From IMG/VR virus record IMGVR_UViG_3300013342_000002: DNA of 20,000 bases. One strand, given 5' to 3'. Below, piece by piece: positions 57 to 18,764 of the stretch. A model generated the notes under the pieces. That model was not told the origin of the DNA. It was given only the letters and a program-made list of their open reading frames with translations, and ran no database searches. Made by a program: the position numbers and the translations under genes. Each line of letters starts with the position of its first letter. Position 1 is the first letter of the stretch. The DNA comes from an uncultured virus (IMG/VR IMGVR_UViG_3300013342_000002) (lineage: Duplodnaviria > Heunggongvirae > Uroviricota > Caudoviricetes).

Positions 57-596
57 ATGAGCAAGTCCACTGTCATCGTTCCCGTCGTGCTGTTGACCAT
101 TCTGCGCAGTACCGAGGTCACCATCACCGAGTCCGTGTTCAAGCACGAGGTACCGATCCTCGAACTTATTCATGGCGAGGACAACGTGAATGTCATCAAC
201 GATGACTACCACGCGATCGAGCTGCCGGACAACGCCACGCAGGAATATCAGCGGCTGCTGACCAAGTACGGCGACAAGTACCGCCCGGTCATCGACCAGG
301 TGTTCCGCAATGGCGCGCGCGACGTGGCGAAGGAAGTCGGCATGGATCTCGGCAAGGACAGCTTCAAGAAGCAGTCCGAGGCCGTGGTCGAAAGCCGTCT
401 GCCGGCCCGTCCGGGCAAGAAGGCCGAATCCGGCGCCGGCACGGGCGGCGATGCCGACCTGACCGCAGCCGAGCTGAAGACCGAGCTGACCAAGCGCAAG
501 GTCGAGTTCAAGGGCAACGCCTCGAAGGCAGATCTGCAGGCGCTGCTGGACGAGGCGAAGAAGGCCGAATCCGGCGCCGGCACCCTGGGCGGTTGA
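57..596 (+). CDS. Phage hypothetical protein with C-terminal HeH/LEM-like domain
   Basis: AAGGAG RBS and strong codon bias. C-terminal LTAAELKTELTKRKVEFKGNASKADLQALL matches the HeH/LEM pattern. Confidence 0.8.
   Translation: MSKSTVIVPVVLLTILRSTEVTITESVFKHEVPILELIHGEDNVNVINDDYHAIELPDNATQEYQRLLTKYGDKYRPVIDQVFRNGARDVAKEVGMDLGKDSFKKQSEAVVESRLPARPGKKAESGAGTGGDADLTAAELKTELTKRKVEFKGNASKADLQALLDEAKKAESGAGTLGG
417..583 (+). repeat. Exact 26-bp direct repeat AAGAAGGCCGAATCCGGCGCCGGCAC (417-442 and 558-583)
   Basis: Read directly from the sequence. Encodes KKAESGAGT twice, 141 bp apart and in frame. Confidence 0.95.
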
Positions 597-619
597 TCAC
601 CAGCACCACGCAGTAACCC

Positions 620-645
620 GACGGGCTGGGGGAACCCGGCCCGTC
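620..645 (+). terminator. GC-rich hairpin with GGAA tetraloop (possible attenuator or mRNA-stabilising stem)
   Basis: GACGGGCTGGG-GGAA-CCCGGCCCGTC, an 11-bp stem with one G-U pair. There is no poly-U tail, so termination is uncertain. Confidence 0.5.
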
Positions 646-662
646 TCCACAAGAGGGATCCC

Positions 663-1409
663 ATGAGCATCACCGACGGCATCCAGTGCGCCTGCTCCAG
701 CACGGACGGCAACGCCACGCTGGCAGAGCTGCGCAAGCGGCTGATGATCCGGCTGGGATTCGCTGCCCAGGCGAACAACCCGCCGCCGGGCATGAAGGAT
801 CTGCTCAACGAGTTCCTGCAGAGCGCGCAGGTGGCGCTGTTCCGGCGCCCCACCGGCGAGTTCCGCAACGAGCGCTGGTTCTCCTGGCCGCTGGTGGCCG
901 GCCAGCGCCTGTACGACTACCCGGACAACGACGAGAAGAATGCCCCGCAGTCGTGCCCGGCAACGCTGGACCCGCGCAAGGTGACGTGGGTTGGTCGCGA
1001 GCGTGATGGCGTGTGGGCCGAGATGCACCAGGGCATCAACCCGCGCAGCTACACGACCAGCGAGCTGACCGGCTTGCCGCAGCGCTACGAGTTCCGCAAC
1101 TGCATCGAGATCTGGCCGGCGCCCGACGAGACGCTGGGCAACCTGGTCATCAAGGGCAAGTTCGACCTCAACCGGTTCACCGAGGACACGGACCGGACCA
1201 CGATCGACAGCGAGATCGTGTTTTTGCTGGCGCTTGCCAACGGCAAGGCGCACTACCGGCAGGCCGACGCGCAGGCCTACATCCAGCAACTAGAGGTGAT
1301 GATCACCAACCTTGTGGCCGGTACCCATGCCACGGCGCGGTACATCCCTGGGCCGCCGGCGGGTGAGGGCGTCTACGTACCGCCTCGCCCGGAGGTGCCG
1401 TTCCCGTGA
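663..1409 (+). CDS. Head-to-tail adaptor / tail tubular protein A-like (P22 gp4 / T7 gp11 equivalent)
   Basis: 248 aa. N-terminal TLAELRKRLMIRLG helix, a G-P-x-Y...IEIWPAPD motif and a helical C-terminus typical of podovirus adaptors. Sits directly before the nozzle. Confidence 0.7.
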   Translation: MSITDGIQCACSSTDGNATLAELRKRLMIRLGFAAQANNPPPGMKDLLNEFLQSAQVALFRRPTGEFRNERWFSWPLVAGQRLYDYPDNDEKNAPQSCPATLDPRKVTWVGRERDGVWAEMHQGINPRSYTTSELTGLPQRYEFRNCIEIWPAPDETLGNLVIKGKFDLNRFTEDTDRTTIDSEIVFLLALANGKAHYRQADAQAYIQQLEVMITNLVAGTHATARYIPGPPAGEGVYVPPRPEVPFP

Positions 1410-2206
1410 CCGGCCGCATTGTCACCCTCAACGCCTCCAAGGGCGGCATCAACCGGCTCAGAACGAAGGGCGGGGCAGACGCGAACACCCTGTACGATTT
1501 GGTCAACGGCTACGTCGATCAGGACGGTGTGCCGCGGTCGCGGCCTGGCACCAAGAACAAGAACACGCTCCCCACCGGTGCGACCAAGGGCCTGTGCGCC
1601 TACGACGGCAAGCTGATCGTCTTCAGCCATGAGCCGCAGACCATCGCGGCCAGCACCCCGGTGGTCGAGTGTGAGGTGCTGAAGCACCCGAACACCCCGG
1701 ATCTGCCGATCAAGGAAATCCACTTCGCCGGCCCGTTCCTCGGCTACTTGTATGTGGTGCCCGAGTTCGTCAACGGCGATGTCTTCCACTACTGGCTGCA
1801 GCGCGGCACGACGTGGGAGCCGGGGAAGATCTACCTTCCGGGGTCGTTGGTCACGCCTACCGACCCCAACGGCATCGCCTACCAGCTCGACAGCGGCACC
1901 GAGCAGTTCCAGGTGTGGGTGCGCAACGTCGCGCGCGCGCTGGGCGACAAGGTCGTTCCCACCGTCGACAACGGATATTCCTACACGGTCACCGACGTGT
2001 TCGGTCCAGCGCCGCGGTCCGGTGCCACTGAGCCGTCTTGGCCAGCATCGCCAGGCGCTACCGTGTTCGAAGACAGCGACGTGGCCAACCCGACGCCGAT
2101 CCCGGGCGAGCAGTCCGGCAACCAGTTGCCGCCGGACGTGACAGATCGCTACGGCAGCAGCGGCGGCAACAGTCCATGGCGCTACGCCAATCAGGAGGCT
2201 CAGTAA
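1406..2206 (+). CDS. Tail nozzle/stabilisation protein, N-terminal part, followed by W-x-x-G-x-x-Y repeat modules
   Basis: GTG start overlapping the upstream TGA. N-terminus GGINRL...DLVNGYVDQDG..RSRPG is typical of podovirus nozzle starts. C-half has WEPGKIYLPGSLVTPT..NGIAY and SGATEPSWP modules. Confidence 0.65.
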   Translation: MTGRIVTLNASKGGINRLRTKGGADANTLYDLVNGYVDQDGVPRSRPGTKNKNTLPTGATKGLCAYDGKLIVFSHEPQTIAASTPVVECEVLKHPNTPDLPIKEIHFAGPFLGYLYVVPEFVNGDVFHYWLQRGTTWEPGKIYLPGSLVTPTDPNGIAYQLDSGTEQFQVWVRNVARALGDKVVPTVDNGYSYTVTDVFGPAPRSGATEPSWPASPGATVFEDSDVANPTPIPGEQSGNQLPPDVTDRYGSSGGNSPWRYANQEAQ

Positions 2207-4197
2207 TGGCCGCTCCCGTCTGGCAGCCTGGCACCCTGTATCTGCCCGGGGATCTGGTCCAGCCGATCACCCATCCGGCGCCGAACAACCCGCAGGTCAT
2301 CAACGGCTACTTCGAGCAAGGGACGACAGGCTGGACGTTCTCCGGCGACGCTTCACTTTCGACGTCGCACGGTTACGGCAGCCCGAATTGCGTCCAGCTG
2401 CCTGGCAACAAGCCAGATGGCGTCGCCCTGAACAACGCGCAGCTCGTCGTGCCAGTCGGCGGACAGCTGACTGCAAACTCGATGATCCAGCAGGGAGCGT
2501 CGGTGGCCGGCGCCACTGCAGGCTGGACCGAGATTCGCTGGTATGACGCGCTGAACACGTTGTTGCAGACGGACAAGGGCAACGTGGTCGACAGTGGCTC
2601 TGGCGGCGCATGGCACCAGTCCACGGTAACCGCGACGGCGCCGGCCTCTGCGGCCTATGCCCGTGGCGCAATCCACCTGACCTCGGTGGCCGACCACAAC
2701 CACGAGATCTTCGGGGACAACCTCGTCGTCAGTGGTGCCAGCGCGGGATTGCCGGAGGGACTGGTCTACAAGGCAGTGCAAGCTGAGTCGGGCACTTCTG
2801 GCAGCAGCGAGCCGACCTGGCCGGGCATCCTCGGCCAGCAGGTCATCGACAACGAGGTGATCTGGGAGGCCGTGACCACCAGCCGTGTGGTGTGGACGGC
2901 CTCGCCGCGCTACGTGAGCGGCACCACCGAACCTGTGTGGCCGACCGACATCGGTGCCATGGTGCAGGACGGTTCGATCAACTGGCGCGCCGTTTCTCGC
3001 CGCGTGGAGGACGAGAAATGCCCCCGCTCGAAGGTGGTGGCGATCGTCGCCAGCAAGGTGTTCGCGGCGGACAAGGACATCGTGCGGTACAGCGCCACGG
3101 CCAACCCGCTGGACTGGTCCACGGCCGATGACGCCGGCTACCTGCCGACCGGCCTGCAGCAGGCCAATGCGAACAACATGGCGGTGCTGCAGCAGTACCG
3201 GGCCAATCTGGTTGCGCTCAACGCCAGCAGCTTCCAGAACTGGCAGGTGGACCCGGATCCGGCTTCGATGGAGATCCTGGACCAGATGGACGGCATCGGC
3301 TCGATCTGGCAGAAGGCTGCCGCACCGGTGGCCAACGACCTGATCTACCTATCCCAGCAGGGCGTGCGCTCGGTCGGGATCGCCAACGCCGCCGAGAATC
3401 TCGCGTCCGGCGACATCGGGGCGCCGATCGACGCCCTGGTTCAGCAGGCGATGCTCTATGCCGACCGCAACGGCACGCCGCCGCTGGCCACCTACTACCC
3501 GGGCGCGGGCCAGTACCTGCTGGCCTTCCCGAACTACCCGCCGCCGGTGCTGGGTGTCTATGGCCGGCTGCCAGCCGCTGGCTGCGGCGACACCATCAAC
3601 TATCCCTACGTAATCGCCGGGGGCCTGCCGCCGTACCAGGTCGAGATTGTGGATGGTCAGCTGCCGGCCGGCCTGTCGATGGACGGCAGCGGCCTGGTCA
3701 CTGGCGAGATTGCCAACGGCGGCGACGCCATCTGGACGGTGCGCGCCACGGACGCGCTGGGCGACACCGCAGAGCTGACCGAAAACCGTACTGGCAGTGA
3801 CGGCTTCTTCAAATACCTGACGACGCGCTTGTATCCCGTCGACGGCGGTGTCGATGCGGTGGGCCTTGCGTCCGATGTCGTGGAAGCGACCTTCCGCAAC
3901 ATCTACCACAGCTACGACGTCCCGGTGGAGGCCATCTCCCTAGCTTCCTCGGTGGAGGCCGGGACGTTCCGCCCGATCCTCCAGAACTACACCGCAATCG
4001 AGGCCATGAGCTTGGCCAGCGCCGTTGAAGCCGGGACGCTGCGAAACACACTGCTCGGGTACACGGTTCCGCCGGAATCGGTGTCGATTGCATCCGCATT
4101 CGTCGCCGGAACCCTGCAGCAGATTCTGATCACCACCACCATGGCACCCGAGGGCATCGGGCTGTCTTCCAGTGTCGAAGGAGGCACCCTCACATGA
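2206..4197 (+). CDS. Multidomain tail protein: W-repeat modules, CBM-like jelly-roll, central nozzle beta-propeller part, Ig-like (He_PIG) domain and C-terminal repeats
   Basis: True start is probably ATG 2206 (TAATG coupling, AGGAGG RBS), not 2038. CBM-like NGYFEQGTTGW...WHQSTVTATAPASAAY. Nozzle-like IVRYSATANPLDW...GIGS...DLIYLSQQGVRS. Ig-like GGLPPY...GQLPAGLSMDGSGLVTG...TVRATDALG. Confidence 0.7.
   Translation: MAAPVWQPGTLYLPGDLVQPITHPAPNNPQVINGYFEQGTTGWTFSGDASLSTSHGYGSPNCVQLPGNKPDGVALNNAQLVVPVGGQLTANSMIQQGASVAGATAGWTEIRWYDALNTLLQTDKGNVVDSGSGGAWHQSTVTATAPASAAYARGAIHLTSVADHNHEIFGDNLVVSGASAGLPEGLVYKAVQAESGTSGSSEPTWPGILGQQVIDNEVIWEAVTTSRVVWTASPRYVSGTTEPVWPTDIGAMVQDGSINWRAVSRRVEDEKCPRSKVVAIVASKVFAADKDIVRYSATANPLDWSTADDAGYLPTGLQQANANNMAVLQQYRANLVALNASSFQNWQVDPDPASMEILDQMDGIGSIWQKAAAPVANDLIYLSQQGVRSVGIANAAENLASGDIGAPIDALVQQAMLYADRNGTPPLATYYPGAGQYLLAFPNYPPPVLGVYGRLPAAGCGDTINYPYVIAGGLPPYQVEIVDGQLPAGLSMDGSGLVTGEIANGGDAIWTVRATDALGDTAELTENRTGSDGFFKYLTTRLYPVDGGVDAVGLASDVVEATFRNIYHSYDVPVEAISLASSVEAGTFRPILQNYTAIEAMSLASAVEAGTLRNTLLGYTVPPESVSIASAFVAGTLQQILITTTMAPEGIGLSSSVEGGTLT
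3850..4194 (+). repeat. Five degenerate ~24-25 aa tandem protein repeats ([ED]xxx[LI][AS]Sxxx[AG][GA]T[FL])
   Basis: DAVGLASDVVEATF / EAISLASSVEAGTF / EAMSLASAVEAGTL / ESVSIASAFVAGTL / EGIGLSSSVEGGTL. Confidence 0.85.
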
Positions 4198-5153
4198 ACA
4201 ATGTCCTGCACGCGCACAACGGCGTGGCCGGTTGGTACAAGATCGAGGCATTCCGGGTGGATGGCCAGGGCAATGAGGTGCCGGGCAGCCGCCGGGTCGC
4301 TGCCGACTGGTTCCCCAATCTGATCACCAACGCCGGCCTGGATCTGCTTGGGACTACAGGATCGACGCCGGTCCAGAGCTTCTGCCGGGTTGGGTCTGGC
4401 AATACCGCGCCGGCCTTCACGGATACCGCGCTGGTTTCCCAGGTGGCCGTGAGCAGCACAGTTCAATCCGACACCAACGGTGTTGACAGGACTGGCGCAT
4501 TCTACGGCTGGCGCCGGCGCACGATTCGTTTCGTCGCAGGCACAGCGACTGGAACTCTTGCCGAAGTGGGTGTGTCTGCCCTCGCCGCAGGCCCATTGTT
4601 CAGCCGCGCTCTGATCCTCGACGGTGGCGGAAACCCGACCACCATCACCGTGCTCTCCGACGAGGTGCTTGACGTCACCTACGAGCTGCGCATCTATCCA
4701 ACCATGACGGATGCAACCGGGTCGGTTGTGATTGCGGGTGTCACCTACGCCTGGACCGCGCGTCCTTTGAACAACGCGACCTATGACTCCCGCTGGGGGC
4801 AGTACATCGGGTGTGGTGTGGGTTTCAATACCACGGCCGGCAACATCTCAATCCTTGGGCCTTCGGCGCTGGCGACCCTGCCAGCCCAAGGATCAACACC
4901 AACGTCGCCGGTGAATGGGACGAGCATGAACCCGCAGGCGTATACCGCCGCCAGCTATCAGCGGTCGTTCCGCATGGATTTCGACCTCAACGACGGAAAC
5001 GTCGCAGGCGGGATTGGGGCATTTTTCGCCGCGACGGAATCATTCCAGACCGGTGGCGCGTGGGCTTGGGGCCTCTCTCCTAAGCTCCCGAAGACCAGCT
5101 CATTCAAGGCGACCTTCACCGTCCGCATGAGCTGGGGGCGCTACACGCCATGA
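4194..5153 (+). CDS. Virion structural protein, tail-collar/fibre-like
   Basis: NLITNAGLD...RVGSGNTAPAFTDTAL resembles tail-collar fibre N-terminal motifs. Thr/Gly/Ser-rich and beta-rich. ATGA-coupled with GGAGG RBS. Confidence 0.6.
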   Translation: MNNVLHAHNGVAGWYKIEAFRVDGQGNEVPGSRRVAADWFPNLITNAGLDLLGTTGSTPVQSFCRVGSGNTAPAFTDTALVSQVAVSSTVQSDTNGVDRTGAFYGWRRRTIRFVAGTATGTLAEVGVSALAAGPLFSRALILDGGGNPTTITVLSDEVLDVTYELRIYPTMTDATGSVVIAGVTYAWTARPLNNATYDSRWGQYIGCGVGFNTTAGNISILGPSALATLPAQGSTPTSPVNGTSMNPQAYTAASYQRSFRMDFDLNDGNVAGGIGAFFAATESFQTGGAWAWGLSPKLPKTSSFKATFTVRMSWGRYTP

Positions 5154-5725
5154 TCCCGGCCGGCGGCCTGTCCACCACCCCGATGCCCGCGGCGAACGTC
5201 GAGCGGGTCAATTCGACGCTGCAGCCGCTGATCGACTTCGAGATGGGCGGTGTCGCGCTGAACGACGCATCGCAGGGCCTGCGGGTGAAGCTGTGGCGCG
5301 TGCGGGTGGACGGCGATGTGGTGTATCTGGGGCCGGATGGCGGAAACGAGCAACCGGCGTTCATCCGGCCTGGCATCACCTCGGTGGCGCTGGCCTTCGA
5401 CCAGAACATGCAGCCAGCCATTGCGTTCGTGCAGTCGGGCCTGGCATGGTTGTGGTGGTATGACAGTTCGGTGCCGGGGATGGTGTTCACCTCGTTTGCG
5501 GGGATGATCAACCCGCGGCTGACGCTGGACGACAAGCGGCCGACCCAGACCAGCAATTCCGATGTGATTCTGGGCTATCTGCGCGCCGGGTCGCTCTACT
5601 ACCGCCAGCAGCGCGACCGCTACCAGACCGAATACCTGCTGAGCGCCAATCCTCCCTGCGGTGGCCTGGCCACGCTATGCATGTCCACTGGCGGCCGACT
5701 GCAGTTCGGCTTCGGAGGTGCCTAA
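5150..5725 (+). CDS. Phage virion structural protein (hypothetical, beta-rich)
   Basis: 191 aa, ATGA-coupled upstream and TAATG-coupled downstream, with strong codon bias. Confidence 0.65.
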   Translation: MIPAGGLSTTPMPAANVERVNSTLQPLIDFEMGGVALNDASQGLRVKLWRVRVDGDVVYLGPDGGNEQPAFIRPGITSVALAFDQNMQPAIAFVQSGLAWLWWYDSSVPGMVFTSFAGMINPRLTLDDKRPTQTSNSDVILGYLRAGSLYYRQQRDRYQTEYLLSANPPCGGLATLCMSTGGRLQFGFGGA

Positions 5726-6213
5726 TGCAGTCGACGGTGTTCGTCTACACGATGCGCTCGGGTAAGCAAGGCGCCTGGAGCCGCTACCTGTTCCCGTTCT
5801 CCGTGGATGCCTTCGCGCAGCTGGGGAATGATCTCTACATCCGGCACGGGGACGAAATCAGCGCGGTCAGCGACTTTGCCTTGGGCGACGACGTTGGCGG
5901 CGAGTCGACCCCGTTCGGTGGCACGGTCTGGTGGCCGTGGCTGGACTTCGGGACGCCGAGCGTCACCAAGATGATGGAGGGTTTCGACATCGTGAGCCAG
6001 GGCACGCCCAGCATCAGCATCGGCTACGACCAGCGGAACCCTGCCGCGTTCACCGAGCCGTACACGGTCGATCCCGACACGCTGCCGGGCGGCGTGATCC
6101 CGTTCCCGATGTCTGCCCCGACCTTCAGCCTGCGCGTGGACTTCGCGCCTGGCAAGAAGTGGGCACTGACGCAGGCGTCGCTGAGCTTCTTCGACCTGGG
6201 CAACGGGCCATGA
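5725..6213 (+). CDS. Tail nozzle/stabilisation protein, C-terminal part
   Basis: Start is probably ATG 5725 (GGAGGT RBS, TAATG). TVFVYT...AWSRY and WLDFGTPSVTK motifs are typical of nozzle C-terminal thirds. Followed by the gp13-like gene, as intact nozzles usually are. Confidence 0.65.
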   Translation: MQSTVFVYTMRSGKQGAWSRYLFPFSVDAFAQLGNDLYIRHGDEISAVSDFALGDDVGGESTPFGGTVWWPWLDFGTPSVTKMMEGFDIVSQGTPSISIGYDQRNPAAFTEPYTVDPDTLPGGVIPFPMSAPTFSLRVDFAPGKKWALTQASLSFFDLGNGP

Positions 6214-6698
6214 CCGTCACCGCCTCCAGCGACGTCCTGATTGAGGATCTGGCCTATTTGGCGAGGAACATGCGCCCGGACGAGATCGCGCAGGACCTGG
6301 CCATGACTGGCGCGGCCGAGTACGACCCGCAGCAGGCGATCCTGAAGATGGCCTCGGTACACGGGCCGAAGTTTGTCCTGCTTGCCGACGGCGTGCCTGT
6401 GGTTGCCGGCGGGTTCTGGCAGGTCCGTCCCGGCGTATGGGAGGGCTGGCAGCTGGGCACGATGGCCGGCTGGGAGAAGCATTGGCGGGCCATCACCAAG
6501 ATCACGCGCAGGCTCAACGATCGGATGCTGGCCGAGCCGAACGTGCACCGCCTGCAGCTCTACGGCCAAGCCGGCCGTGACAAGACGTTCGAGTGGTACG
6601 AGCGTTCGCTGGGCTACCAGCGTGAAGCCACCCTGAGCCGCTACTGCGCCAATGGCGACGACGCGGTCCTGTTCGCACGTATCAAGGAGGCAGGCTGA
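6210..6698 (+). CDS. GNAT-fold virion assembly protein (T7 gp13 / P22 gp14-like)
   Basis: Start ATG 6210 (ATGA overlap). DLAYLARNMRPDE, PVVAGG and VHRLQ...WYERSLGYQREATL motifs. Syntenic between nozzle and ejection genes. Confidence 0.75.
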   Translation: MTVTASSDVLIEDLAYLARNMRPDEIAQDLAMTGAAEYDPQQAILKMASVHGPKFVLLADGVPVVAGGFWQVRPGVWEGWQLGTMAGWEKHWRAITKITRRLNDRMLAEPNVHRLQLYGQAGRDKTFEWYERSLGYQREATLSRYCANGDDAVLFARIKEAG

Positions 6699-7408
6699 TG
6701 GCCGGCGGCGGCAATATCGGCAAGGGCAACTGGGCAGACCCGACGGGGCTGATCCAGAAGTCGGGCGCCAGCAAGATTCTGGACCCGCTGGGCCTGACCA
6801 AGACGGCCAAGCAGGGCGAGTCGGCTGCGGACGTGGCCGCGCGTCTGGAGATGGAGCGCCAGGAGCGAATCCGCGAGGCTCAGGGCCGCATCAACCAGGT
6901 GTTCGACAACCCGCGCCGGGCCAAGGACATCGCCGATTTTGTATCGGCAACCCGTTCCAAGCTGATGGAAGACCTCAACCGGCAGAACACCGACGCGGCG
7001 CGCGAACTGAAGTTCTCGCTGGCGCGCGGCGGCCTGTCCGGCGGCAGCGTCAACGTCGACCAGAACCGCAGGCTCACCGACGAGTACAACCGGGGGCTGA
7101 TCAACGTCGAGGGCAGGGCGCAGGGCGCCGGCGCGCAGCTCGAAGCTGCCGATCAGGATTCCCGTGCCCGCCTCATCCAGCTGGCGACGTCTGGCCTAGA
7201 CGCGACCACGGCGGCATCGCAGGCGGCGGCCGGTTTGCGCTCCAACTTCGAGAACGCCAAGTCACAGGCCTTCGGCGAGCAGCTGGGGGACCAGTTCGCA
7301 GGCATCACGGGCTTCGTGAAGCGGCGGCTTGAAGAGTCTGGCCAACGAAAGGCGGTGCGCGATTCCAACTTCTCTCTTTACGGCGGCGGTGCCGCATATG
7401 GCGGGTAA
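6698..7408 (+). CDS. Internal virion / DNA ejection protein
   Basis: Helical, Ala/Gln/Arg-rich, with an LARGGLSGGS motif. Position after the gp13-like gene. Confidence 0.65.
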   Translation: MAGGGNIGKGNWADPTGLIQKSGASKILDPLGLTKTAKQGESAADVAARLEMERQERIREAQGRINQVFDNPRRAKDIADFVSATRSKLMEDLNRQNTDAARELKFSLARGGLSGGSVNVDQNRRLTDEYNRGLINVEGRAQGAGAQLEAADQDSRARLIQLATSGLDATTAASQAAAGLRSNFENAKSQAFGEQLGDQFAGITGFVKRRLEESGQRKAVRDSNFSLYGGGAAYGG

Positions 7409-7411
7409 CTC

Positions 7412-8056
7412 ATGGGCCAGGTAATCCCAATCGCGCTGATGGCCGCTGGCACCCTTGCACAGCAGGCAGAGACCGAGCGTGTCACGCGCAAGCAGGACGA
7501 GGCGACTGCGCAGGGCCTGCTGAACCAGTCGCGCCGCCAGCAGGAGGCCGATCGCCGCGTGAACGACGAGATCGCCCAGCTGGAGACCAGCACGGCGGCG
7601 GATGACCGGGCCCAGCGGCTGGGGCAGTACATGCAGCAGCTGCAGCGCGGCCGCAAGCAGGCCGTCGCTGGTTTGGAGGGACCCGTCGGCGGAGCAACCT
7701 TCCAGGCTGATGCCGGCGCCGCGCGCGCCGGCGCGGACAACGCCGCTGCAACCACTGCCGGCCTGATGTCCCGCATCGATGCTCCGCAGCTGCAGCGGCA
7801 GCAGGAGGCATTCGGGTACGGCAGGCTGGCCACCGATCTCGGTATGGAGGCGCGCGCAAGCCGCGGCCAGCAGTTCATCGACCAACTGCGCCTGCGGCAG
7901 ATCCGGCGCCGCCCCGAAGTCGACCTCCTGGCCGGTCTGGCTACGTCCGTCGGCGGGGCGATGGCAGGCGGAGGCGGCGGGCTCGCTGCCTCTGCGCCGC
8001 AGATGGGTGCCAATTTCTACGGGTCGTATGACCCGGTCACCATGGGGTATGCGTAA
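7412..8056 (+). CDS. Internal virion / DNA ejection protein (P22 gp7 / T7 gp14-like)
   Basis: Hydrophobic N-terminus, Q/A-rich coiled coil and a Gly-rich hydrophobic C-terminal segment. Confidence 0.65.
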   Translation: MGQVIPIALMAAGTLAQQAETERVTRKQDEATAQGLLNQSRRQQEADRRVNDEIAQLETSTAADDRAQRLGQYMQQLQRGRKQAVAGLEGPVGGATFQADAGAARAGADNAAATTAGLMSRIDAPQLQRQQEAFGYGRLATDLGMEARASRGQQFIDQLRLRQIRRRPEVDLLAGLATSVGGAMAGGGGGLAASAPQMGANFYGSYDPVTMGYA

Positions 8057-9264
8057 TGGATCCGTATCTGGCAGGGCAGACACTCGGCAGCTTGTTTGGC
8101 GCCAAGGACCGCGCCTACAGCGCTGAGATGGATCGCCAGCAGAAGCTCGAAGCTGCAAAAGCTGAAGCTCGATACAAGCGAGCGCAGGCTGTCTTGGCTG
8201 AGGGCAACGTATCCCAGCGGGGTGTCATGAACGACCCTGCACTGGTGGGGCGCTTTCTCGCGGGAGACACTGATGCTCGGAACGAGTACCTGACGGCGGC
8301 CACGCTGGCGAACCCCAACGTCGACATCAAGACGCTAGGGGAAGGGCTACAGGTCCTGTACCGACAGGCTGCCAGAGACAAGGCGGTGCTGGGTGACGCG
8401 GATAATCCGAATTCGGAGCTGTTCGGTGTCGCGAATGGCCCGGTCGAAACGACGAAGATCTCTGACGGGGTGGCTTACAGCCCCCTGGGCTCGTCGTCTC
8501 AGTCGCTGAACGTGACGCCTCTTGGCGAGGCCGCGATCGGGCAGCGTCGCGCGTCTGCTGCGGCCAGCTATGCCAGTGCCGACAATTCCCGTGCCTCTGC
8601 TGCCCGAACCCGGCAGGCGATGAGCCTCGACCGCGCCGATGTGCTTGGCGGTGGCGGCGGAAAGCCTGCCAGCAAGGCTCCAAGCGGCTACCGCTGGGCC
8701 GCAAATGGAACCTTGGAGGCCATCCCCGGCGGCCCCGCCGACAAGCCGTTGGGGAGCGGCGCAACTGAAGACGAGCGCAAAGCCGCTGGCTGGCTGGGCC
8801 AGGCGACGCGGGCGCTCTCGAACATGGAGCAGGCGCTCTACAAGAAGGACGACAAAGGCGCCTTCTTGCTGGACGCGCGTGGGCAGCGCATCCCAACGGG
8901 AGCGGATACGCCTGGGTTCATCGAGACGTATTCGTGGAGCCCAGAGCTTGGCAATCGCAGCATGAGCCCGGATCGACAGCGCTATTCGAACGCCGCGTCG
9001 TCGCTGTCCGAAGCGCTGTTGCGCGCCGCTACCGGCGCTGGCGTCAACGAGTCCGAGGCAAAGCAGAAGATCGCAGAGTTGACCCCGCAGCGCGGTGATT
9101 CGGAGGAAGTGAAGAAGCAGAAGCTGGCTGGCGCTGCCGGCTACATCGAAGACCTGCGCGCCCGAGCAGGTCGCGCGCTTCCTGCTGCACCGCGGACCCT
9201 GGGCGATGCTCCTTCGGGAGGCATCCGCAAGCGCTACAACCCGGCGACTGGGAGGGTTGAATAA
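8056..9264 (+). CDS. DNA ejection/transfer protein
   Basis: 402 aa, Ala-rich. KAPSGYRW..GTLEAIPGGPAD and LLRAATGAGVNESE...PQRGDSEEVKKQK motifs are typical of podovirus ejection proteins. Confidence 0.65.
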   Translation: MDPYLAGQTLGSLFGAKDRAYSAEMDRQQKLEAAKAEARYKRAQAVLAEGNVSQRGVMNDPALVGRFLAGDTDARNEYLTAATLANPNVDIKTLGEGLQVLYRQAARDKAVLGDADNPNSELFGVANGPVETTKISDGVAYSPLGSSSQSLNVTPLGEAAIGQRRASAAASYASADNSRASAARTRQAMSLDRADVLGGGGGKPASKAPSGYRWAANGTLEAIPGGPADKPLGSGATEDERKAAGWLGQATRALSNMEQALYKKDDKGAFLLDARGQRIPTGADTPGFIETYSWSPELGNRSMSPDRQRYSNAASSLSEALLRAATGAGVNESEAKQKIAELTPQRGDSEEVKKQKLAGAAGYIEDLRARAGRALPAAPRTLGDAPSGGIRKRYNPATGRVE

Positions 9265-11615
9265 TGCCGATCGAAGTCGAATTGCCTGATGGCAGCATCG
9301 CCGAGTTCCCCGATGGCATGTCCGACGACGCCATCAGCAGTGTGCTGAGGAAGCAGTTTGGAACCGGTGGCCCTCCGATCACCGACCTGCCCGCCGTCCA
9401 GGCGCTCCCGCCTGATTTCTCCGAAGTGACAAGCAGCGTCTCCAGCACGGCGGACGGCCGGCAGGCGGACGGCTGGAGGGCCGGACCGCTGCGCGACGCC
9501 GCTTTCAGTGCGCGTTCGGTGCTACAGGGCATTGGCAGCCTCCTTGGCGCGGTCGGTGGCGATGCCCTCGGCGCGTTGGAAACGAAGGTCACCGGCCGGC
9601 CTGTGGCCAGCTTCCGCGACAACGCCGCGACGCTGGGCGACGCCCTCGGGCTGCCCAAGGCACAGACCTCTGGCGATCGCGTTCTCGGTGACGTGGGCGA
9701 GGCGCTGACCGGTACCGCCTTGACCCTTGGCGGTGGTGGAGCGCTCACCGCTGGGCGCCCGGTTGCCTCACTCGTGCCCACCCTGGGTGAGAGGGCGGGG
9801 GCGTTCCTCACTGCGCAGCCTGCCTTGCAGGTCGCCAGCACGCTCGGTGGCTCTGCAGCTGCCAGCGGAACGCGTGAGGCCGGTGGCGGGCCGGTCGCGC
9901 AGGCTATCGCGGGCATCGCCGGCGGCCTCGCACCGGGCGTGGTCCCGAGGCTGCCCACATCTGGCGTGGTTCCGGCAGTTGCCGCCAATGCCACGCGGCG
10001 AGCGCTGCGTGGTGGCGATGCTGCGGCGGTGAAGCAGACGCTGGGTGACTTCGCAGAAGCGGGGGTGCAGCCGAGCATGGGGCAGGCCACAGGCAATCGT
10101 GTGCTGCAGGCTGCTGAAACGTTCCTGGGAAGCGTGCCGGGCTCCGCTGGCGTGATCGATCGATTCGCACAGCGACAGGCTGGCCAGTTTGGCAACCGGA
10201 TCGATGAGATTGCCTCCTCGCTGGCACCGGGTGGCCAGGCTGTCGACCCAGAAATGGCTGGCCTCGCCATCAGGCAGGGAATTGCGGGGCCGGGCGGCTT
10301 CAAGGAGATGTCGCGCGCAGAGAGCAATGCGCTCTACCAGGCGCTGGACGAGCTGATTCCGCAGGACACGCGGGTCGACATCTCCAATGTGCAGGCGGCG
10401 CTGAGGGATCTGAATCAGGCTATCCCCGGCGCTCCTTCCACGTCGCGTTTGTTCCAGAACGCTCGCTTGGGCAGCATCGAGGGCGGCCTGATCGATGACA
10501 CCCAGGGCGTGCAGGCTCTGCTGACGCAGCCCGGCATGCAGGAGCAGGCCGACGCCTACCGCGCCTACCTGCAGGCCCAAGCTCGTTCCGTCGAGATGGA
10601 AAATGCGCGCCGCAAGTCGCTGGGCATGACGGTGATGGAGCCGGTGCCGACTGCTGATCAGATCGAGCAGAACGTCATGGCCACGCTGGGCAACATGACC
10701 GACAACCGTCTGCCCTACGAGGCCCTGCAGAAGCTGCGGTCGCTGGTTGGGCGCGAGATCGACAACGCCAATTTCGGCAGCGACGTGCCGCGCAGCATGT
10801 GGCGGCCGGTGTACGCCGCACTGAGCCGCGATATGGAGGAGGCGGTCAAGGCAACCGGCAATCCCAAGGCGGGTGAGGCCCTGACGAATGCCAACCAGTA
10901 CCACGCGCGGTATGTGGACCAGCTGGAGAACATCGATTCCATCATTGGCCCCAAGGACGGCGAGGCCGCCTATCTGGCCGCGGTGAGCGGCGCAAAGGAC
11001 GGACCGACCCGCATCCGATCGATCATGAAGGCGCTGCCGGATGAGCAGAAAAAGATCGTCAGCTCTGCCTTCATCCGCCGTATGGGCCGCGCTGTGGGCA
11101 GCCAGCAGACCGACGAGAACAATGTGTTCTCGATGAATACGTTCCTCACGAACTACGCCAACACCAGCCCGGAGGCTCGCAAGGTCCTGTTTGGCAGCTA
11201 CGGGCCTGAGTTTGAACGTAACATGCAGACGATCGCCAAAGCCTCCTCCCGTATCAGGGAGGGGTCGAAGGTGTTTGCGAACCCTTCGGGAACATCCAGT
11301 AGGGATGCGCTGATTGGGCAGCTGGCTACCACGGGTGCTGGCGCTGGTACGGCGCTGGCGATGGGAAACGCAGGCGCGGCGTTCATTACGCTGGCGAGTT
11401 CGCTGGGCAGTTCGGCATTTGCAAACGGCTTGGCCAAGGCCATGACCAGCCCCAAGTACGTCAACTGGCTCGCACGGACCTCTGAAAAGCCAACAGGGGA
11501 GATCATGAGCCAGCTACAGGTACTGCGTGGGATCGCGGAAAGGTCGCGCGATCCTGACGTCGCTGAGGTGGCGGATGAGATCGAGCGCCAGCTCAGCGAA
11601 CAAACGACAGAATGA
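9264..11615 (+). CDS. Large DNA ejection/transfer protein
   Basis: 783 aa. N-terminal VELPDGSIAEFPDGMSDDAI module, Gly/Ala hydrophobic stretches and a helical body. Last gene of the ejection cluster. Confidence 0.7.
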   Translation: MPIEVELPDGSIAEFPDGMSDDAISSVLRKQFGTGGPPITDLPAVQALPPDFSEVTSSVSSTADGRQADGWRAGPLRDAAFSARSVLQGIGSLLGAVGGDALGALETKVTGRPVASFRDNAATLGDALGLPKAQTSGDRVLGDVGEALTGTALTLGGGGALTAGRPVASLVPTLGERAGAFLTAQPALQVASTLGGSAAASGTREAGGGPVAQAIAGIAGGLAPGVVPRLPTSGVVPAVAANATRRALRGGDAAAVKQTLGDFAEAGVQPSMGQATGNRVLQAAETFLGSVPGSAGVIDRFAQRQAGQFGNRIDEIASSLAPGGQAVDPEMAGLAIRQGIAGPGGFKEMSRAESNALYQALDELIPQDTRVDISNVQAALRDLNQAIPGAPSTSRLFQNARLGSIEGGLIDDTQGVQALLTQPGMQEQADAYRAYLQAQARSVEMENARRKSLGMTVMEPVPTADQIEQNVMATLGNMTDNRLPYEALQKLRSLVGREIDNANFGSDVPRSMWRPVYAALSRDMEEAVKATGNPKAGEALTNANQYHARYVDQLENIDSIIGPKDGEAAYLAAVSGAKDGPTRIRSIMKALPDEQKKIVSSAFIRRMGRAVGSQQTDENNVFSMNTFLTNYANTSPEARKVLFGSYGPEFERNMQTIAKASSRIREGSKVFANPSGTSSRDALIGQLATTGAGAGTALAMGNAGAAFITLASSLGSSAFANGLAKAMTSPKYVNWLARTSEKPTGEIMSQLQVLRGIAERSRDPDVAEVADEIERQLSEQTTE

Positions 11616-11778
11616 CGTAGACGACGCCGGCGGCTACGCACAGGGCAAGGAAGCCCAGCCATATAAGCATCGGCACAGGACTTGCGCTGACCTTTTCCAG
11701 CTCTGCCTCGCTCTTCTCGTGCTGGATCTCGGCCCAGGTCTTCGGGGTGCCGTAGTTGGTCTTCTTCCAATCACTCAT
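11593..11778 (-). CDS. Small single-pass membrane protein (moron; candidate superinfection exclusion)
   Basis: 61 aa with a C-terminal hydrophobic helix MLIWLGFLALCVAAGVVYVIL. Directly downstream of 11789..12136 with a GAGGA RBS. Confidence 0.6.
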   Translation of the reverse strand: MSDWKKTNYGTPKTWAEIQHEKSEAELEKVSASPVPMLIWLGFLALCVAAGVVYVILSFVR

Positions 11779-11788
11779 GGCATTGTCC

Positions 11789-12136
11789 TCAGCGGAAAGG
11801 CTTCATCTGCACACAACGGGAAAGAGTGGTCGGAATCGAGTCCACGATCCGCTGGACTAGCTCTAGGTCCTTCCCAACGGACGCAACTTGCTCGTCGGAA
11901 AGTGCTGAAATGGTGAGCATGGTTGTGCACTCACACAGCTCGCTCATAGTCCCAGAGCCAGCCTGGATAATCGCATTGGCGACCTCGGGCTTGTACAAGG
12001 CGCGCTCTCGACAGAGTTTATCCACCCGCTCGGCGAGGACTACCCGCGCTGGCGCTCTGTAGGGATCTTCAGCCTTGGGTACGGCGGTGGGCGTTGAAGC
12101 GCCGACTGCAAGTGCAAGGAGCGATGTGACAATCAT
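11789..12136 (-). CDS. Secreted/periplasmic Cys-containing protein (moron)
   Basis: Signal peptide-like MIVTSLLALAVGAS, four Cys (C...CEC...C), and an AAGGAG RBS on the minus strand at 12147-12152. Confidence 0.65.
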   Translation of the reverse strand: MIVTSLLALAVGASTPTAVPKAEDPYRAPARVVLAERVDKLCRERALYKPEVANAIIQAGSGTMSELCECTTMLTISALSDEQVASVGKDLELVQRIVDSIPTTLSRCVQMKPFR

Positions 12137-12176
12137 CCGTGGTGTTCTCCTTTCATCACTTCACCTTGGTTGTAGT

Positions 12177-12623
12177 TCAGAACGGCATCTGGGCCAGGTC
12201 GGAAGCCAACTTCTCGACTTCGGCAGGGATCGGTTCACCGCTGTACTTCGCTTTGACTGCGTGGAACAGAGCTTGGCGAATGGTGTCGGAGAACTCTTCC
12301 AAGTAGGCAAGCTCGGACTGAGCGCCCTCCCATACAGCAGGATCAAAGTCAGACGCTGCGATTTCTTCCTGCAGGGTGGAGATCATGCCTTTCAGCGACT
12401 CCAGCCTGGATCGCAGCAGCAGCGACATCGTGTCCGGGGTGAAGACCACCTGCCTGCCGTCTCCCACGAACGACTCTTCAAGTCGGGCGACGATCTCGGC
12501 GTTTAGGGAGCGCCCCGACTCGCTTGCGGCCTCTTCCAGGCGCTCTTTCAGTTCCGGCTGCATCCGCAGCCCGAACGGGTTGATGTGCCCAGTAGCGGGG
12601 CGGGTTTCGAGCTTTCTGGCCAT
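12177..12623 (-). CDS. Arc/Mnt-family ribbon-helix-helix repressor with C-terminal extension (Mnt-like)
   Basis: PFGLRMQPELKERLEEAASESGRSLNAEIVARLEESF is a canonical Arc motif. Divergent from the arc/antirepressor operon, as mnt is in P22. Confidence 0.88.
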   Translation of the reverse strand: MARKLETRPATGHINPFGLRMQPELKERLEEAASESGRSLNAEIVARLEESFVGDGRQVVFTPDTMSLLLRSRLESLKGMISTLQEEIAASDFDPAVWEGAQSELAYLEEFSDTIRQALFHAVKAKYSGEPIPAEVEKLASDLAQMPF

Positions 12624-12626
12624 GGC

Positions 12627-12691
12627 TACATGGTGTCGTCAAAAAGTGCTTGACGCCATGCCCACACCGTGTAACTAATAACACCATGTAA
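12627..12691. promoter_or_regulatory. Divergent promoter/operator region with repeated ACACCRTGTA boxes
   Basis: TACATGGTGT at 12627-12636 (reverse copy), ACACCGTGTAA at 12664-12674 and ACACCATGTAA at 12681-12691. Inverted CGTCAA-N7-TTGACG at 12637-12655. Confidence 0.7.
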
Positions 12692-12763
12692 TCACTGGCG
12701 AGCATCCGTTGATGCCGCGGGTGGACCCGGGATAGTCCCTCTACCAACCACAGGAGAACCACC

Positions 12764-12913
12764 ATGGAAAAAGCGCACGTCGTTGTCCGGATGCCCGTCG
12801 ATCTGCGCGACTGGCTGAAGCAAAAGGCCGAGGAGGATCGTCGGTCGGTCAATTTCATGACCCTCGAGCTGCTGGAGAAGGCTCGTAGGGAGGACCAGGA
12901 GAAAGCCGCATGA
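12764..12913 (+). CDS. Arc-like RHH repressor, 49 aa (absent from the ORF track)
   Basis: Manual translation MEKAHVVVRMPVDLRDWLKQKAEEDRRSVNFMTLELLEKARREDQEKAA. CAGGAGA RBS and ATGA overlap with the next gene. Confidence 0.85.
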   Translation: MEKAHVVVRMPVDLRDWLKQKAEEDRRSVNFMTLELLEKARREDQEKAA

Positions 12914-13680
12914 GCGAGATGATGATCGCCGGAGTGCAAATCCACAGGGACGCGGGAGGCCGCTACAGTCTCAATGATCTTCACCGCGCCGCTGGCGGGG
13001 AAGTCAGGCACAGGCCCGCCACCTGGCTGCAAAATCAGCAGACCAAAGACCTGGTCACGGAGATTGAGAAAGACGGAATTCCGTCTATCCAAGCAAAACA
13101 AGGGCTTGGGACATATGTGGCGAAAGAGCTCGTCTATGCCTACGCCATGTGGATCAGCCCGGCATTCCACCTGAAAGTCATTCGCGCCTACGATGCCGCA
13201 TTGATCTCCCCCGCAATCAGCCAAGGGTTTGTCGGCGATGGTTGTGCGCTGATTGAGTCTGCAGCAAAGGTTTTGCGGCTGGCGCCATCGGTGACATTGG
13301 GGATGTACCAGCGGCTTGGCGGAAAGGTCGGTCATCAGGACCTCTTGCCGAGCTATACGGTAGATGCCCCGGCTGACACTGTTGGCAGTAGCGAGCCGAC
13401 GCTCCCGATGAGCAGCTTGCTGAAGATGGTCGGCGCCCCTATGAGCGCTCAGAAAGCCAATCAGCTGCTCAAGTCTATTGGCCTCCTTGAGCAGCGTGAA
13501 CGCCCGTCCAGTGGCAACCGGGTCAAGAAGTACTGGACGTTGACGGATGCGGGGCTGCAATACGGGAAGAACCTCACTTCTCCCGAGAATCCCCGCGAGA
13601 CGCAGCCTCACTACTACGTCGCGCGATTCGGTGAGCTCATGGACCTGATGTCTGGTGGTCTGCACGAGGCTGCAGCGTGA
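12910..13680 (+). CDS. KilA-N domain phage antirepressor / DNA-binding protein
   Basis: IHRDAGGRYSLNDLHRAAGG...GTYVAKELVYAYAMWISPAFHLKVIRAYD is a KilA-N signature. C-terminal YWTLTDAGLQYGKN...ETQPHYY domain. Confidence 0.9.
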   Translation: MSEMMIAGVQIHRDAGGRYSLNDLHRAAGGEVRHRPATWLQNQQTKDLVTEIEKDGIPSIQAKQGLGTYVAKELVYAYAMWISPAFHLKVIRAYDAALISPAISQGFVGDGCALIESAAKVLRLAPSVTLGMYQRLGGKVGHQDLLPSYTVDAPADTVGSSEPTLPMSSLLKMVGAPMSAQKANQLLKSIGLLEQRERPSSGNRVKKYWTLTDAGLQYGKNLTSPENPRETQPHYYVARFGELMDLMSGGLHEAAA

Positions 13681-13883
13681 GCCGCGAAGACCCGCAGGTG
13701 AATTTCCGTCTCCCGGCGGAGTTGCTGCAGCGCCTGCGATTTTCGGCAGCTACGAGCAATCGGACGGTGACTGCCGAGCTCGTTTCAAGGCTGGAGAGCA
13801 GTTTCGATGCCAAGCCCTGGCTTGATAAGCCTACCGCCGAGCGCTTGATTGAAGCCCTGCAGGACTACGTCGCACGGCCCTGA
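13677..13883 (+). CDS. Arc-family RHH DNA-binding protein
   Basis: SREDPQVNFRLPAELLQRLRFSAATSNRTVTAELVSRLESSF. GTGA overlap with the upstream gene. Confidence 0.88.
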   Translation: MSREDPQVNFRLPAELLQRLRFSAATSNRTVTAELVSRLESSFDAKPWLDKPTAERLIEALQDYVARP

Positions 13884-13890
13884 CTCCCCC

Positions 13891-13956
13891 AAAAGCGAAG
13901 CCCCAGGGCGGCCACCCCGGGGCTTCGGACGGAAAAATCGACTAGGAGATTTCCAA
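13891..13956 (-). ncRNA. Candidate sar-like antisense RNA (~66 nt)
   Basis: Minus-strand TTGACA (13990-13985)-N16-TAGCCT (13968-13963) promoter. The transcript would cover the AGGAGA RBS (13944-13949) of the 13956 ORF and end at hairpin 13896-13927 followed by CTTTT. Confidence 0.6.
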
Positions 13957-14273
13957 TGGCAAAGGCTACAGCAAGGCCGCTTTGTGTCAACTTCCCGAAG
14001 TCCCACCCGATCTGTGACTGCTGCGACAAGGTCGTGTCGTGGTCCAAGATGGAGGCGGTTCGCGGCGAGCTTGGAACGGTAGCGGGTGGCTTCAAGTACC
14101 AGATCTGCCGTGCATGCGCCGAGGATATTCAGGCTCTGCCTGCAGAGGAGCAGGTGATCCAGTACGCCTACGCTGCGATCAGCCATGCCGAGCTGTATTC
14201 GGCTTCCTATGCCAAGTTCATCGCGGACTGGTTTGGCTTCAACGACCGGGGCCGGGGGAAAAAGGCCGCATGA
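13956..14273 (+). CDS. Hypothetical protein with two CxxC motifs (putative Zn-binding)
   Basis: AGGAGA RBS, CDCC and CRAC motifs, ATGA-coupled to the next gene. Confidence 0.7.
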   Translation: MAKATARPLCVNFPKSHPICDCCDKVVSWSKMEAVRGELGTVAGGFKYQICRACAEDIQALPAEEQVIQYAYAAISHAELYSASYAKFIADWFGFNDRGRGKKAA

Positions 14274-14853: not shown

Positions 14854-15099
14854 ATGAAAGATCCGGTTTCCCAAGAGGTGGCTGCGGCCGCCTACAAGCT
14901 CGTGCCCCCGGTGGTGGGGACGATCACCACCACGGCGCAGGGGCTGTCGTGGGCCGACCTGGTGGCGATCTCGACGCTGGTCTACACGTGCGTCCTGACT
15001 GCCACGACGGTGATGCGGAACTGGGGTGATTGGTCGCAGTGGCTGGGCGCCCGTTTTGCGGCCTTGCGCCGGTTCTGGGGGTGGATCCGTGGCCACTAA
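14854..15099 (+). CDS. Holin (likely pinholin-type)
   Basis: 81 aa with hydrophobic segments and an amphipathic basic C-terminus. Immediately precedes and overlaps the endolysin. Confidence 0.75.
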   Translation: MKDPVSQEVAAAAYKLVPPVVGTITTTAQGLSWADLVAISTLVYTCVLTATTVMRNWGDWSQWLGARFAALRRFWGWIRGH

Positions 15100-17605: not shown

Positions 17606-17942
17606 CAAATATGCCATCAGTGCCTCTGGATATAGAGCAGTCGATGCCGAGATGCCTTTGGGGGCGGGCGAGATTCTTGCGGATGCCATTCCTGTGGACC
17701 TTCTGCGCCGAATCAAGGCCGATCAGTTGAATTCCGAGCGTAGCCAGCGTCTCCGTGCTACCGACTGGACCCAGATGCCCGATGCGCCCCTGACCGCGTT
17801 GGAGAAGGCGGCCTATCAGACCTACCGGCAGGCGCTTCGTGATCTGCCCAGCGTTCCAGGGTTCCCCGACGTGCCGTGGCCGACATTACCAACCATCAGA
17901 GACGGCACGGCCAGCTCTGGAGAGGGCGCTGTCTACCCCTGA
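17595..17942 (+). CDS. Tail fibre assembly chaperone
   Basis: Start ATG 17595. R..RLRATDWTQMPDAPL...YRQALRDLP..PGFP..PWP signature. Confidence 0.85.
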   Translation: MSGNKYAISASGYRAVDAEMPLGAGEILADAIPVDLLRRIKADQLNSERSQRLRATDWTQMPDAPLTALEKAAYQTYRQALRDLPSVPGFPDVPWPTLPTIRDGTASSGEGAVYP

Positions 17943-18611: not shown

Positions 18612-18764
18612 GGCCGGAGGGTAGCCCTGTCGGCCGTGGCCGGCGCGTGTAGAGCGTGCCGTCGCATGACCGGATCACTGTCAAGACTGGCCCTGTGGCG
18701 CCCGTCCGCGTTAGCATCCCGTCCCCCTCTGGCGGTGCCGGGGCAATTGGATACACTACCCCGC

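Follow-up and report, generated by a model that had tools for sequence, protein, structure and literature searches.

Here we report that three separate genes in the tail region of a podovirus-type prophage very probably encode, between them, a single functional tail nozzle. The nozzle is the beta-propeller protein that follows the head-to-tail adaptor and forms the tail channel; P22 gp10, Pa223, SU10, VP1, and T7 gp12 are nozzles made of one chain. In the 20,000-nucleotide stretch of DNA analyzed here (the window), taken from the uncultured virus record IMGVR_UViG_3300013342_000002, three open reading frames (ORFs), named A, B, and E, match consecutive thirds of such a protein, and two complete genes, C and D, lie between B and E. 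This reading draws on the tiling of the three pieces along one nozzle profile, the fold of natural single-chain relatives, the conservation of the pieces, and a series of intermediate forms among related loci. It would mean that the propeller controlling DNA release tolerates two breaks, one of them within a blade, and is nonetheless retained by selection.

The three pieces were delimited with a hidden Markov model profile of 462 positions (A2), which was built from 56 single-ORF relatives and run with hmmsearch on the six frames of the window (E ≤ 10). A2 matched three times, with no other match, and the matches tile the profile in order and without a gap: positions 5-131 at 1424..1810 in ORF A (1406..2206, 266 aa; E 3e-24), positions 132-305 at 2995..3528 in ORF B (2206..4197, 663 aa; E 2e-49), and positions 303-460 at 5719-6201 in ORF E (5725..6213, 162 aa; E 6e-29), all on the plus strand. 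The identical three tiles, with no fourth match, were found in all five related provirus records, and in the four of these with an estimated completeness of at least 90% the A2 search found no second nozzle gene. In the window and in the five relatives, the products of several genes thus jointly cover one nozzle fold, and stops divide what would be one polypeptide per subunit into three ORFs that differ in frame or place. An initial reading made from the window's letters without database searches (the sequence-only reading) had picked out the same segments, with which the A2 tiles agree within about 20 bases, and their collinearity with a single nozzle protein, on which it had staked its proposal, was borne out in the window as well as in the relatives.

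The uninterrupted single-ORF homologs that this proposal called for were also found. A 587-aa ORF of Rhizobium phage RHph_N65 aligns in order with all three pieces (A 13-141 with residues 11-137; B 278-421 with 254-401, E 2e-13; E 1-137 with 420-562), as does the 481-aa protein P0289 (A 8-135, 9e-16; B 263-446, 8.6e-22; E 3-131, 3.1e-14), whose residues 6-136 align with core segment 1 of A. In locus L036, one 606-aa protein corresponds to B and E together, with B 1-445 at residues 1-441 and E 2-162 at residues 445-606 (58% identity for E). Since the two matches abut in one protein, with only three residues between them, the last strand of the B core is directly followed by the first strand of E, as had been read from the sequence. 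The segments are not independent complete domains: natural single-chain relatives hold all three, and the model of one of these is a single compact nozzle. Compact single-chain proteins of this kind, ~460-520 aa long, form a large family (357 matches at E ≤ 0.001). A tblastn search with A against the phage collection gave no match at 1e-5. The RHph_N65 nozzle homolog (L001, MN988536.1, 3251-5014) is annotated as a '6-phosphogluconate dehydrogenase protein', a label that looks wrong given its homology to the nozzle pieces and its position after adaptor-like genes and before the 'injection protein'.

By sequence, neither the B-E profile nor the compact nozzle profile gave a meaningful match to a solved structure, so the nozzle assignment rests on the folds of natural single-chain relatives. 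The model of P0289, made from 56 sequences, has a predicted local distance difference test (pLDDT) score of 87.4 and a predicted template modeling (pTM) score of 0.87. The first 30 Foldseek matches listed for this model are all phage nozzles or muzzles, beginning with Pa223 (1e-19) and P22 gp10 (2e-16) and followed by Sf6, VP1, SU10, T7, and others. A second structural aligner, applied over model residues 1-481, gave Z scores of 27.9 for Pa223 (440 residues), 27.0 for SU10 (445 residues), 25.6 for VP1 (441 residues), 24.7 for P22 gp10 (403 of 471 residues), and about 21 for T7 gp12 (about 453 residues), against at most 17.9 over ~280 residues for generic WD40 propellers. The model of the 606-aa fused B-E protein of L036 (pLDDT 79) likewise matches nozzles, including SU10 and P22, and its N-terminal domain matches carbohydrate-binding modules (CBMs) of the CBM16/CBM61 type. 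The platform and the beta-propeller of a nozzle are thus present in the models of the relatives, to which the chains of the window are tied by sequence.

On the P0289 model, the A/B boundary (~residues 136-141) is a loop after strand 128-133, and the B/E boundary (320-323) is a turn between strands 313-320 and 323-332; in alignments with the fused relatives, E begins two residues ahead of the beta-strand that follows the last core strand of B. With the B/E break in a strand turn, complementation would be the only way to keep the fold. A complex prediction for A 1-145 and B 262-450 with E as the partner gave 0.92, and a control in which B was replaced gave 0.83, a result that counts neither way for binding.

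The nozzle genes belong to a tightly packed gene run on the plus strand (57-9264) and occupy the place of a nozzle in it, after the adaptor and before the genes for internal or ejection proteins. The adaptor gene (663..1409) matches the Pfam family SU10_adaptor (PF24175; E 5.8e-10, 40.4 bits against a cut-off of 27). ORF A starts at a GTG that overlaps the adaptor stop; its residues ~7-135 are nozzle piece 1, and its tail (residues ~142-266) holds one W..EP.WP-type repeat and a Gly/Ser-rich end. The ATG of ORF B follows AGGAGG and overlaps the stop of A as TAATG, and the protein consists, in this order, of a CBM-like domain, two repeats, nozzle piece 2, an immunoglobulin-like (Ig-like) domain, and five ~25-aa repeats. 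ORF E has its own ATG after GGAGG, overlapping the stop of D as TAATG. The sequence-only reading had described all junctions as TAATG couplings with ribosome-binding sites, which is true of A/B and D/E but not of the adaptor/A junction (GTGA) or of B/C, C/D, and the junction of E with the next gene (all ATGA). That next gene (6210..6698, plus strand, 162 aa) matches phrog_4177 (2.4e-13) and, weakly, phrog_308 'internal virion protein'; it is kept after E across the relatives, and there the nozzle block ends and the internal-protein genes begin. The downstream genes from 6210 match the RHph_N65 genes that lead to its 'injection protein'.

Comparison of 39 related viral loci, down to 52% identity, revealed a series of forms at the second break. 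The B core and E make up one ORF of 605-614 aa in five loci (L034-L037 and L039), whereas a single ORF of 920 aa in two others (L020 and L032) carries ~300 aa in frame exactly at the B/E junction and one of 887 aa (L040) carries an insert inside the E part. In seven further loci (L026-L031 and L033), B runs into other domains and a stop, and E restarts at an ATG coupled to this stop, without C and D. The 24 remaining loci have the layout of the window, with C and D, so that an Ig domain, five repeats, and two fiber genes lie in the break. Common to all split B proteins is a part of ~90 residues after the core, beyond which at least five different distal modules follow, one of them a WD40-like propeller. 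The shared part is an Ig-like He_PIG domain, which scores above the Pfam cut-off in three of the seven split B proteins without C and D (L026, L029, and L031) and below it in the B of the window (E 0.0099).

These loci also bear on the possibility that frameshift errors or a chimeric assembly created the split, to which high-GC DNA (65% in the window) is prone in that some technologies make indel errors in it. Independent contigs share the window's layout in 24 cases (62-99% identity) and have other split layouts in seven more, and close relatives are located in five genome assemblies of Stenotrophomonas and Novilysobacter; recurrence in independent assemblies already refutes such an artefact, whose probability we regard as negligible.

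At the first break, A is out of frame with B in all 38 loci that hold both, and fusions were found among 28 longer proteins retrieved with A residues 1-145. Eight of these are single chains with A, B, and E, namely P0289 and seven proteins of 826-1135 aa. In seven others, A is followed by a long C-terminal extension. The sequence-only reading took the nozzle to be apparently split by two grafted adhesin modules. Modules do sit at the breaks, but a graft alone causes no split, for the first module is also found in fused A-B-E chains of relatives, and other relatives carry in-frame inserts at the second site. Judged from the sequences compared, this family tolerates domain insertions at both breaks.

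Further insertions were observed elsewhere in the fold. In 12 of the 28 A-matching proteins (P0274 and P0278-P0288), the A core is interrupted at ~residue 57-99 by ~250-400 aa, mostly of LamG type, and this point is a third insertion site of the same nozzle fold. A fourth lies inside E at ~residue 45-62, where L040 (4434-7097) carries ~290 aa in frame and 12 cluster representatives described below also have an insert. In L036 (5470-6672) and L037 (5476-6675), A is ~400 aa long, compared with 266 aa in the window, and the extra C-terminal part has no Pfam match. The remaining protein of the 28, P0267, is a 491-aa fusion of adaptor and A whose source is labeled Fusarium graminearum, which probably reflects contaminating bacterial or phage DNA that was processed by a eukaryotic gene caller.

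To see how common the second break is, we searched E against 1.84 billion cluster representatives (at 50% identity), which gave 419 matches at E ≤ 0.001, and classified the best 150 of these 419 by local searches. Fusion of B and E without a junction insert was the most frequent form (54 of the best 150), followed by in-frame junction inserts of more than 60 aa (25), stand-alone E proteins of 160-174 aa (20), proteins in which E follows 30-190 residues unrelated to B, here called X-E (17), inserts inside E (12), proteins with only part of B (12), fragments (9), and one odd 489-aa protein that starts with E. All 20 stand-alone E proteins begin with a Met located 2-5 residues before the same strand. 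With 25 in-frame inserts and 20 splits among the best 150 of 419, the data point to the hairpin as a specific and recurrent site in the nozzle for receptor-binding modules. The X-E proteins (including P0121, P0123-P0127, P0134, and P0156) have the E domain behind a variable unrelated N-terminal region; a few are evident fragments in which the last strand of B is still present, and in some the arrangement may be mirrored, the appendage being joined to E as in phage A1002 (see below).

An E-domain tree was built from 87 rows (86 of the 150 representatives and the window); the 64 other representatives were fragments, partial B proteins, or two-stretch E or X-E forms and were excluded. An approximately unbiased (AU) test rejected a single clade of the 21 stand-alone rows (p-AU 0.00019). 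Parsimony on this tree required 19 changes, and shuffled labels required 17-21; as the count is no better than that for shuffled labels, we give no number of split origins, and recombination could explain the scattered stand-alone E proteins as well as repeated splitting.

The pieces might alternatively be the nonfunctional remains of a nozzle gene decaying in a defective prophage. The element is indeed a prophage, many prophages are defective, and, next to the one chain of most solved phages, three pieces could at first be taken for damage. The ratios of nonsynonymous to synonymous substitution rates (dN/dS), computed for the window against five split relatives (L007, L019, L021, L024, and L027), speak for the opposite: the A core has values of 0.04-0.20, the B core 0.07-0.15, and E 0.07-0.12, like the adaptor (0.04-0.37), with 0.18-0.57 for the C-terminal graft of B and 0.15-0.18 for C, values that are unreliable for the most distant loci because dS is saturated there. 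On these estimates, the nozzle pieces are under purifying selection. All pieces are moreover intact in the 39 loci, even at 52% identity, the junction of every split variant coincides exactly with an ATG that is coupled to the upstream stop, stand-alone E recurs in 20 of the best 150 clusters, and the four near-complete relatives have no replacement nozzle gene. Decay is thus highly improbable, in agreement with the sequence-only reading, which had seen none. The dS values jump between adjacent segments (against L007, 0.31 for E and 1.44 for C), and such sharp differences between neighbors would fit an exchange of cassettes.

A second alternative is that one chain is restored, by frameshifting or read-through at A/B and by ribosome bypassing or protein trans-splicing through a split intein at B/E. 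The TAATG overlap of A and B, the existence of fused A-B-E chains in relatives, and the reading frame shared by B and E (frame 1, from the coordinates 2206 and 5725) are compatible with it. Nevertheless, the 1.5 kb from B to E is occupied by two complete, conserved genes in other frames, and because E aligns to the fused relatives from residue 2 and the B core stops three residues earlier, there is no room for intein halves. The C-terminal part of B is an Ig-like domain with fiber repeats, E has its own GGAGG and ATG, neither B nor E has a Pfam match to an intein or Hint family (E ≤ 0.01), and inspection of the 25 bases before the A/B junction showed no slippery heptamer. We consider such rejoining very unlikely.

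It is also conceivable that the nozzle consists of B and E only and that A has left the fold as a separate accessory, such as a fiber-like or collar protein, given that A is a separate gene throughout the prophage clade (38/38 loci), has variable C-terminal extensions of up to ~400 aa, and receives LamG insertions in relatives. The first ~135 residues of A nevertheless match the N-terminal 131 positions of the single-chain profile, and the corresponding residues of the P0289 model lie within the region aligned to solved nozzles, a part that B-E alone would be without. The A core is also the most conserved segment (dN/dS 0.04-0.20). We leave this option little weight, and prefer the nozzle composed of A, B, and E.

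The modules that surround the nozzle segments resemble a known fiber set. The first graft, in the gap between core segments 1 and 2, includes a CBM-like jelly roll (B residues 24-151; 2275..2658, plus strand), which shares 36% identity with residues 26-154 of ORF26 of phage CP2 (E 1e-18), and the N-terminal domain of B matches phrog_12940 'tail fiber' (1e-27). The C-terminal graft (B residues 446-663; 3541..4194, plus strand) comprises the Ig-like domain (residues ~472-522; ~3619-3771) and the five repeats (residues 537-662; 3814-4191), the latter 35% identical to CP2 ORF26 217-340 (E 7e-14). Tandem Repeats Finder detected no DNA repeat in 3400-4300, and the five repeats are visible in the protein only. 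ORF C (4194..5153, 319 aa) and ORF D (5150..5725, 191 aa), both on the plus strand within break 2, match phrog_4176 (9e-73) and phrog_4950 (5e-57), respectively, two 'tail fiber' families. The ~2.2 kb that separates nozzle pieces 2 and 3 is therefore made up as had been described from the sequence, of an Ig domain, repeats, and two whole genes.

By tblastn, homologs of C occur in 194 phage records and those of D in 195, spanning Pseudomonas phiKMV-like, Xanthomonas and Xylella CP2-like, Stenotrophomonas, and some N4-like phages. In CP2, the homologs of C and D are adjacent and directly follow ORF26, and D is 51% identical to its CP2 counterpart. The adjacency of C and D, in the same order and after a five-repeat protein, is that of the distal fibers of the CP2/phiKMV type. 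Neither C nor D, alone or as a small profile, found a solved homolog by sequence. With both of its ends matching both ends of ORF26, B looks like a fiber protein with a nozzle segment between its halves. Since L036 and similar loci without the cassette keep the N-terminal domain, the two ORF26-like halves need not have arrived together. As the sequence-only reading proposed for its appendages, carbohydrate-binding-like, Ig, and fiber modules are located at the new termini.

The closest functional information on this fiber set comes from PhiXacm4-11, a phage with 92% nucleotide identity to CP2. According to its preprint, gp37 combines a CBM-like domain with a predicted five-rung beta-helix, gp38 is partly like the GP4 fiber, gp39 is a three-bladed propeller resembling lectins, all three proteins were detected in virions, and infection needs type IV pili (bioRxiv 10.64898/2026.02.16.706137). 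We infer from CP2 homology, and from the CBM domain and five-rung beta-helix just mentioned, that these proteins are the counterparts of ORF26 and of the CP2 homologs of C and D. Another preprint proposes gp45-47 of Ar-KM as flexible pilus-binding fibers and reports pilus dependence for phiKMV-like phages as well as distal fiber proteins in virions (bioRxiv 10.64898/2026.05.18.726046). By analogy with these phages, type IV pili may be the receptor here too, a suggestion that we make with less than even confidence.

In the mechanism that we propose, the N-terminal third of the fold would come from A, the next third from the middle of B, and the last third from E, which starts inside the beta-hairpin of one propeller blade. 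The three translationally coupled chains would fold together non-covalently by beta-strand complementation, and six copies of each would form a normal hexameric nozzle of 18 chains. The free C-terminus of B would project the Ig linker and the five repeats outward as a fiber anchor, which would recruit C and D as a host-recognition device, possibly for type IV pili. The sequence-only reading had likewise envisaged a heterotrimeric, fragment-complemented nozzle; homology, tiling, and the conservation of the pieces sustain it, and the non-covalent assembly itself is still deduced.

More speculatively, the blade hairpin could be a general plug-in port of this large nozzle family for host-recognition cassettes, swapped by recombination between the Ig linker and the start of E, either in frame or with their own stop, genes, and restart, so that lineages would repeatedly shift between one-chain and multi-chain forms, and E would be a latch that closes the propeller once the fiber-bearing B is in place. 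We regard this combined scenario as tentative and rather unlikely to hold in full; if E were such a latch, fiber loading would be coupled to tail assembly. The results may help to explain how host range changes among temperate phages that infect Stenotrophomonas and related bacteria, and to annotate 'hypothetical' or mislabeled genes.

Several considerations weigh against the three-chain nozzle with a pilus-directed fiber. The structural evidence consists of predicted models of relatives and not of the window's own three chains, and the production of A, B, and E and their shared location in the virion are deduced from the genes. A second nozzle gene outside the 20 kb is excluded by analogy with the relatives only, and the receptor assignment draws on homologs in phages reported to depend on pili. 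The five repeats may form either a five-rung beta-helix, as predicted for the presumably homologous region in PhiXacm4-11, or a fiber-docking 'rope' as in A1002.

Outside the nozzle block, the window contains a phage lysozyme gene (15026-15562) and, near the right end of the prophage, a gene for a tail-fiber chaperone (17484-17942; Phage_tail_APC, 6.5e-20). Host-like genes for an SRAP peptidase (minus strand, 4.6e-54) and a thymidylate kinase (2.3e-42) lie within 17946-19439, and these bacterial genes after the chaperone identify the element as a prophage, with its right end probably close to 17.9 kb. Between 16023 and 17942, two ORFs (260 and 266 aa) without family matches precede the tail-fiber assembly chaperone, and a second receptor-binding locus, in addition to that in the nozzle, may lie here. 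The segment at 11000-14000 has a GC content of 58-59%, compared with ~65%. A gene for an Arc-like repressor (12177-12623, minus strand) and one of KilA-N type (12910-13680) are found there, and the segment resembles a regulatory or moron island that separates the ejection genes from the lysis genes. The gene at 57-596 encodes a 179-aa protein whose last 35 residues match HeH/SAP DNA-binding motifs just below the Pfam cut-off; five PHROG families match the same C-terminal end, two of them annotated as Arc-like repressors. A gene of this type is odd between the head genes and the adaptor.

To our knowledge, nozzles were held to be single polypeptides until 2026. The sequence-only reading had stated as much for podoviruses, which was right until then but is outdated by two two-piece nozzles solved in that year (PMC13730344; bioRxiv 10.64898/2026.02.16.706137). 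With the single-chain nozzles of P22 (gp10), Sf6 (gp8), Pa223, VP1 (gp16), SU10, and T7 (gp12), the system described here shares the gene position and, as seen in a single-ORF relative (Z 20-28), the fold, but it consists of three polypeptides and has no sequence-level similarity to any solved chain. In CP2-like, phiKMV-like, and some N4-like phages, the fiber set is free-standing and far from the nozzle gene, whereas here it is set inside the nozzle gene, and a nozzle core segment interrupts its first, ORF26-like member or has that member fused around it. In the phage collection, CP2-like matches were confined to the fiber region, and the nozzle parts had no detectable similarity to CP2-like phages.

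In Xanthomonas citri phage PhiXacm4-11, which is CP2-like, cryo-electron microscopy (cryo-EM) showed a nozzle that is a hexamer of gp30:gp31 heterodimers completed by strand complementation (bioRxiv 10.64898/2026.02.16.706137). In that report, two neighboring genes jointly provide the platform, propeller, fiber-dock, and tip domains, the first ends in a Gly/Ser-rich stretch near the start of the second, as at our A/B junction, and fused versions occur in other prophages. Unlike the nozzle described here, that of PhiXacm4-11 has one break with no genes inside it, and its fiber module is attached through a separate T7 gp17-like fiber (gp36) rather than grafted into the nozzle (bioRxiv 10.64898/2026.02.16.706137). 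No match to gp30 or gp31 was seen in the phage collection or the PDB sequences, whose inclusion of them is unsure.

The closest parallel is Pseudomonas phage A1002, in which gp42 ('nozzle-base') and gp39 ('nozzle-rope') mutually fill in missing strands, as seen by cryo-EM (PLoS Biol 2026, PMC13730344). In both systems, an ancestral one-chain nozzle appears to be divided between genes, which was seen by cryo-EM in A1002 and is read here from the genes; two fiber genes (gp40 and gp41, by their numbering) lie between the nozzle genes; and one nozzle piece has an Ig-like domain and a long fiber-docking region (PMC13730344). The systems differ in that A1002 has two pieces and the window three, that the appendage of A1002 is on the N-terminal side of the C-terminal fragment and here on the C-terminal side of the middle fragment, and that the A1002 fiber proteins are small (147 and 171 aa) and GP4/VP1-like, compared with the CP2/phiKMV type found here (PMC13730344). 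The host and phage group of A1002 also differ from those of the window. No Kochitakasuvirus was present among the phage matches and no PDB sequence matched, in collections from which the A1002 chains are perhaps absent. From the A1002 paper and the Ar-KM preprint, we infer that break 1 may correspond roughly to the site at which longer nozzles carry a tip or N-terminal insertion domain.

Our literature search found no split nozzles beyond the two reports of 2026, and none on this prophage group. New in the system described here are the three pieces, the break within a blade hairpin, the appendage on the side opposite to that in A1002, and the fiber set embedded in the nozzle gene. The relatives add a comparative series and frequency data that the two 2026 papers lack, and they preserve intermediate steps that these structural studies could only hypothesize.

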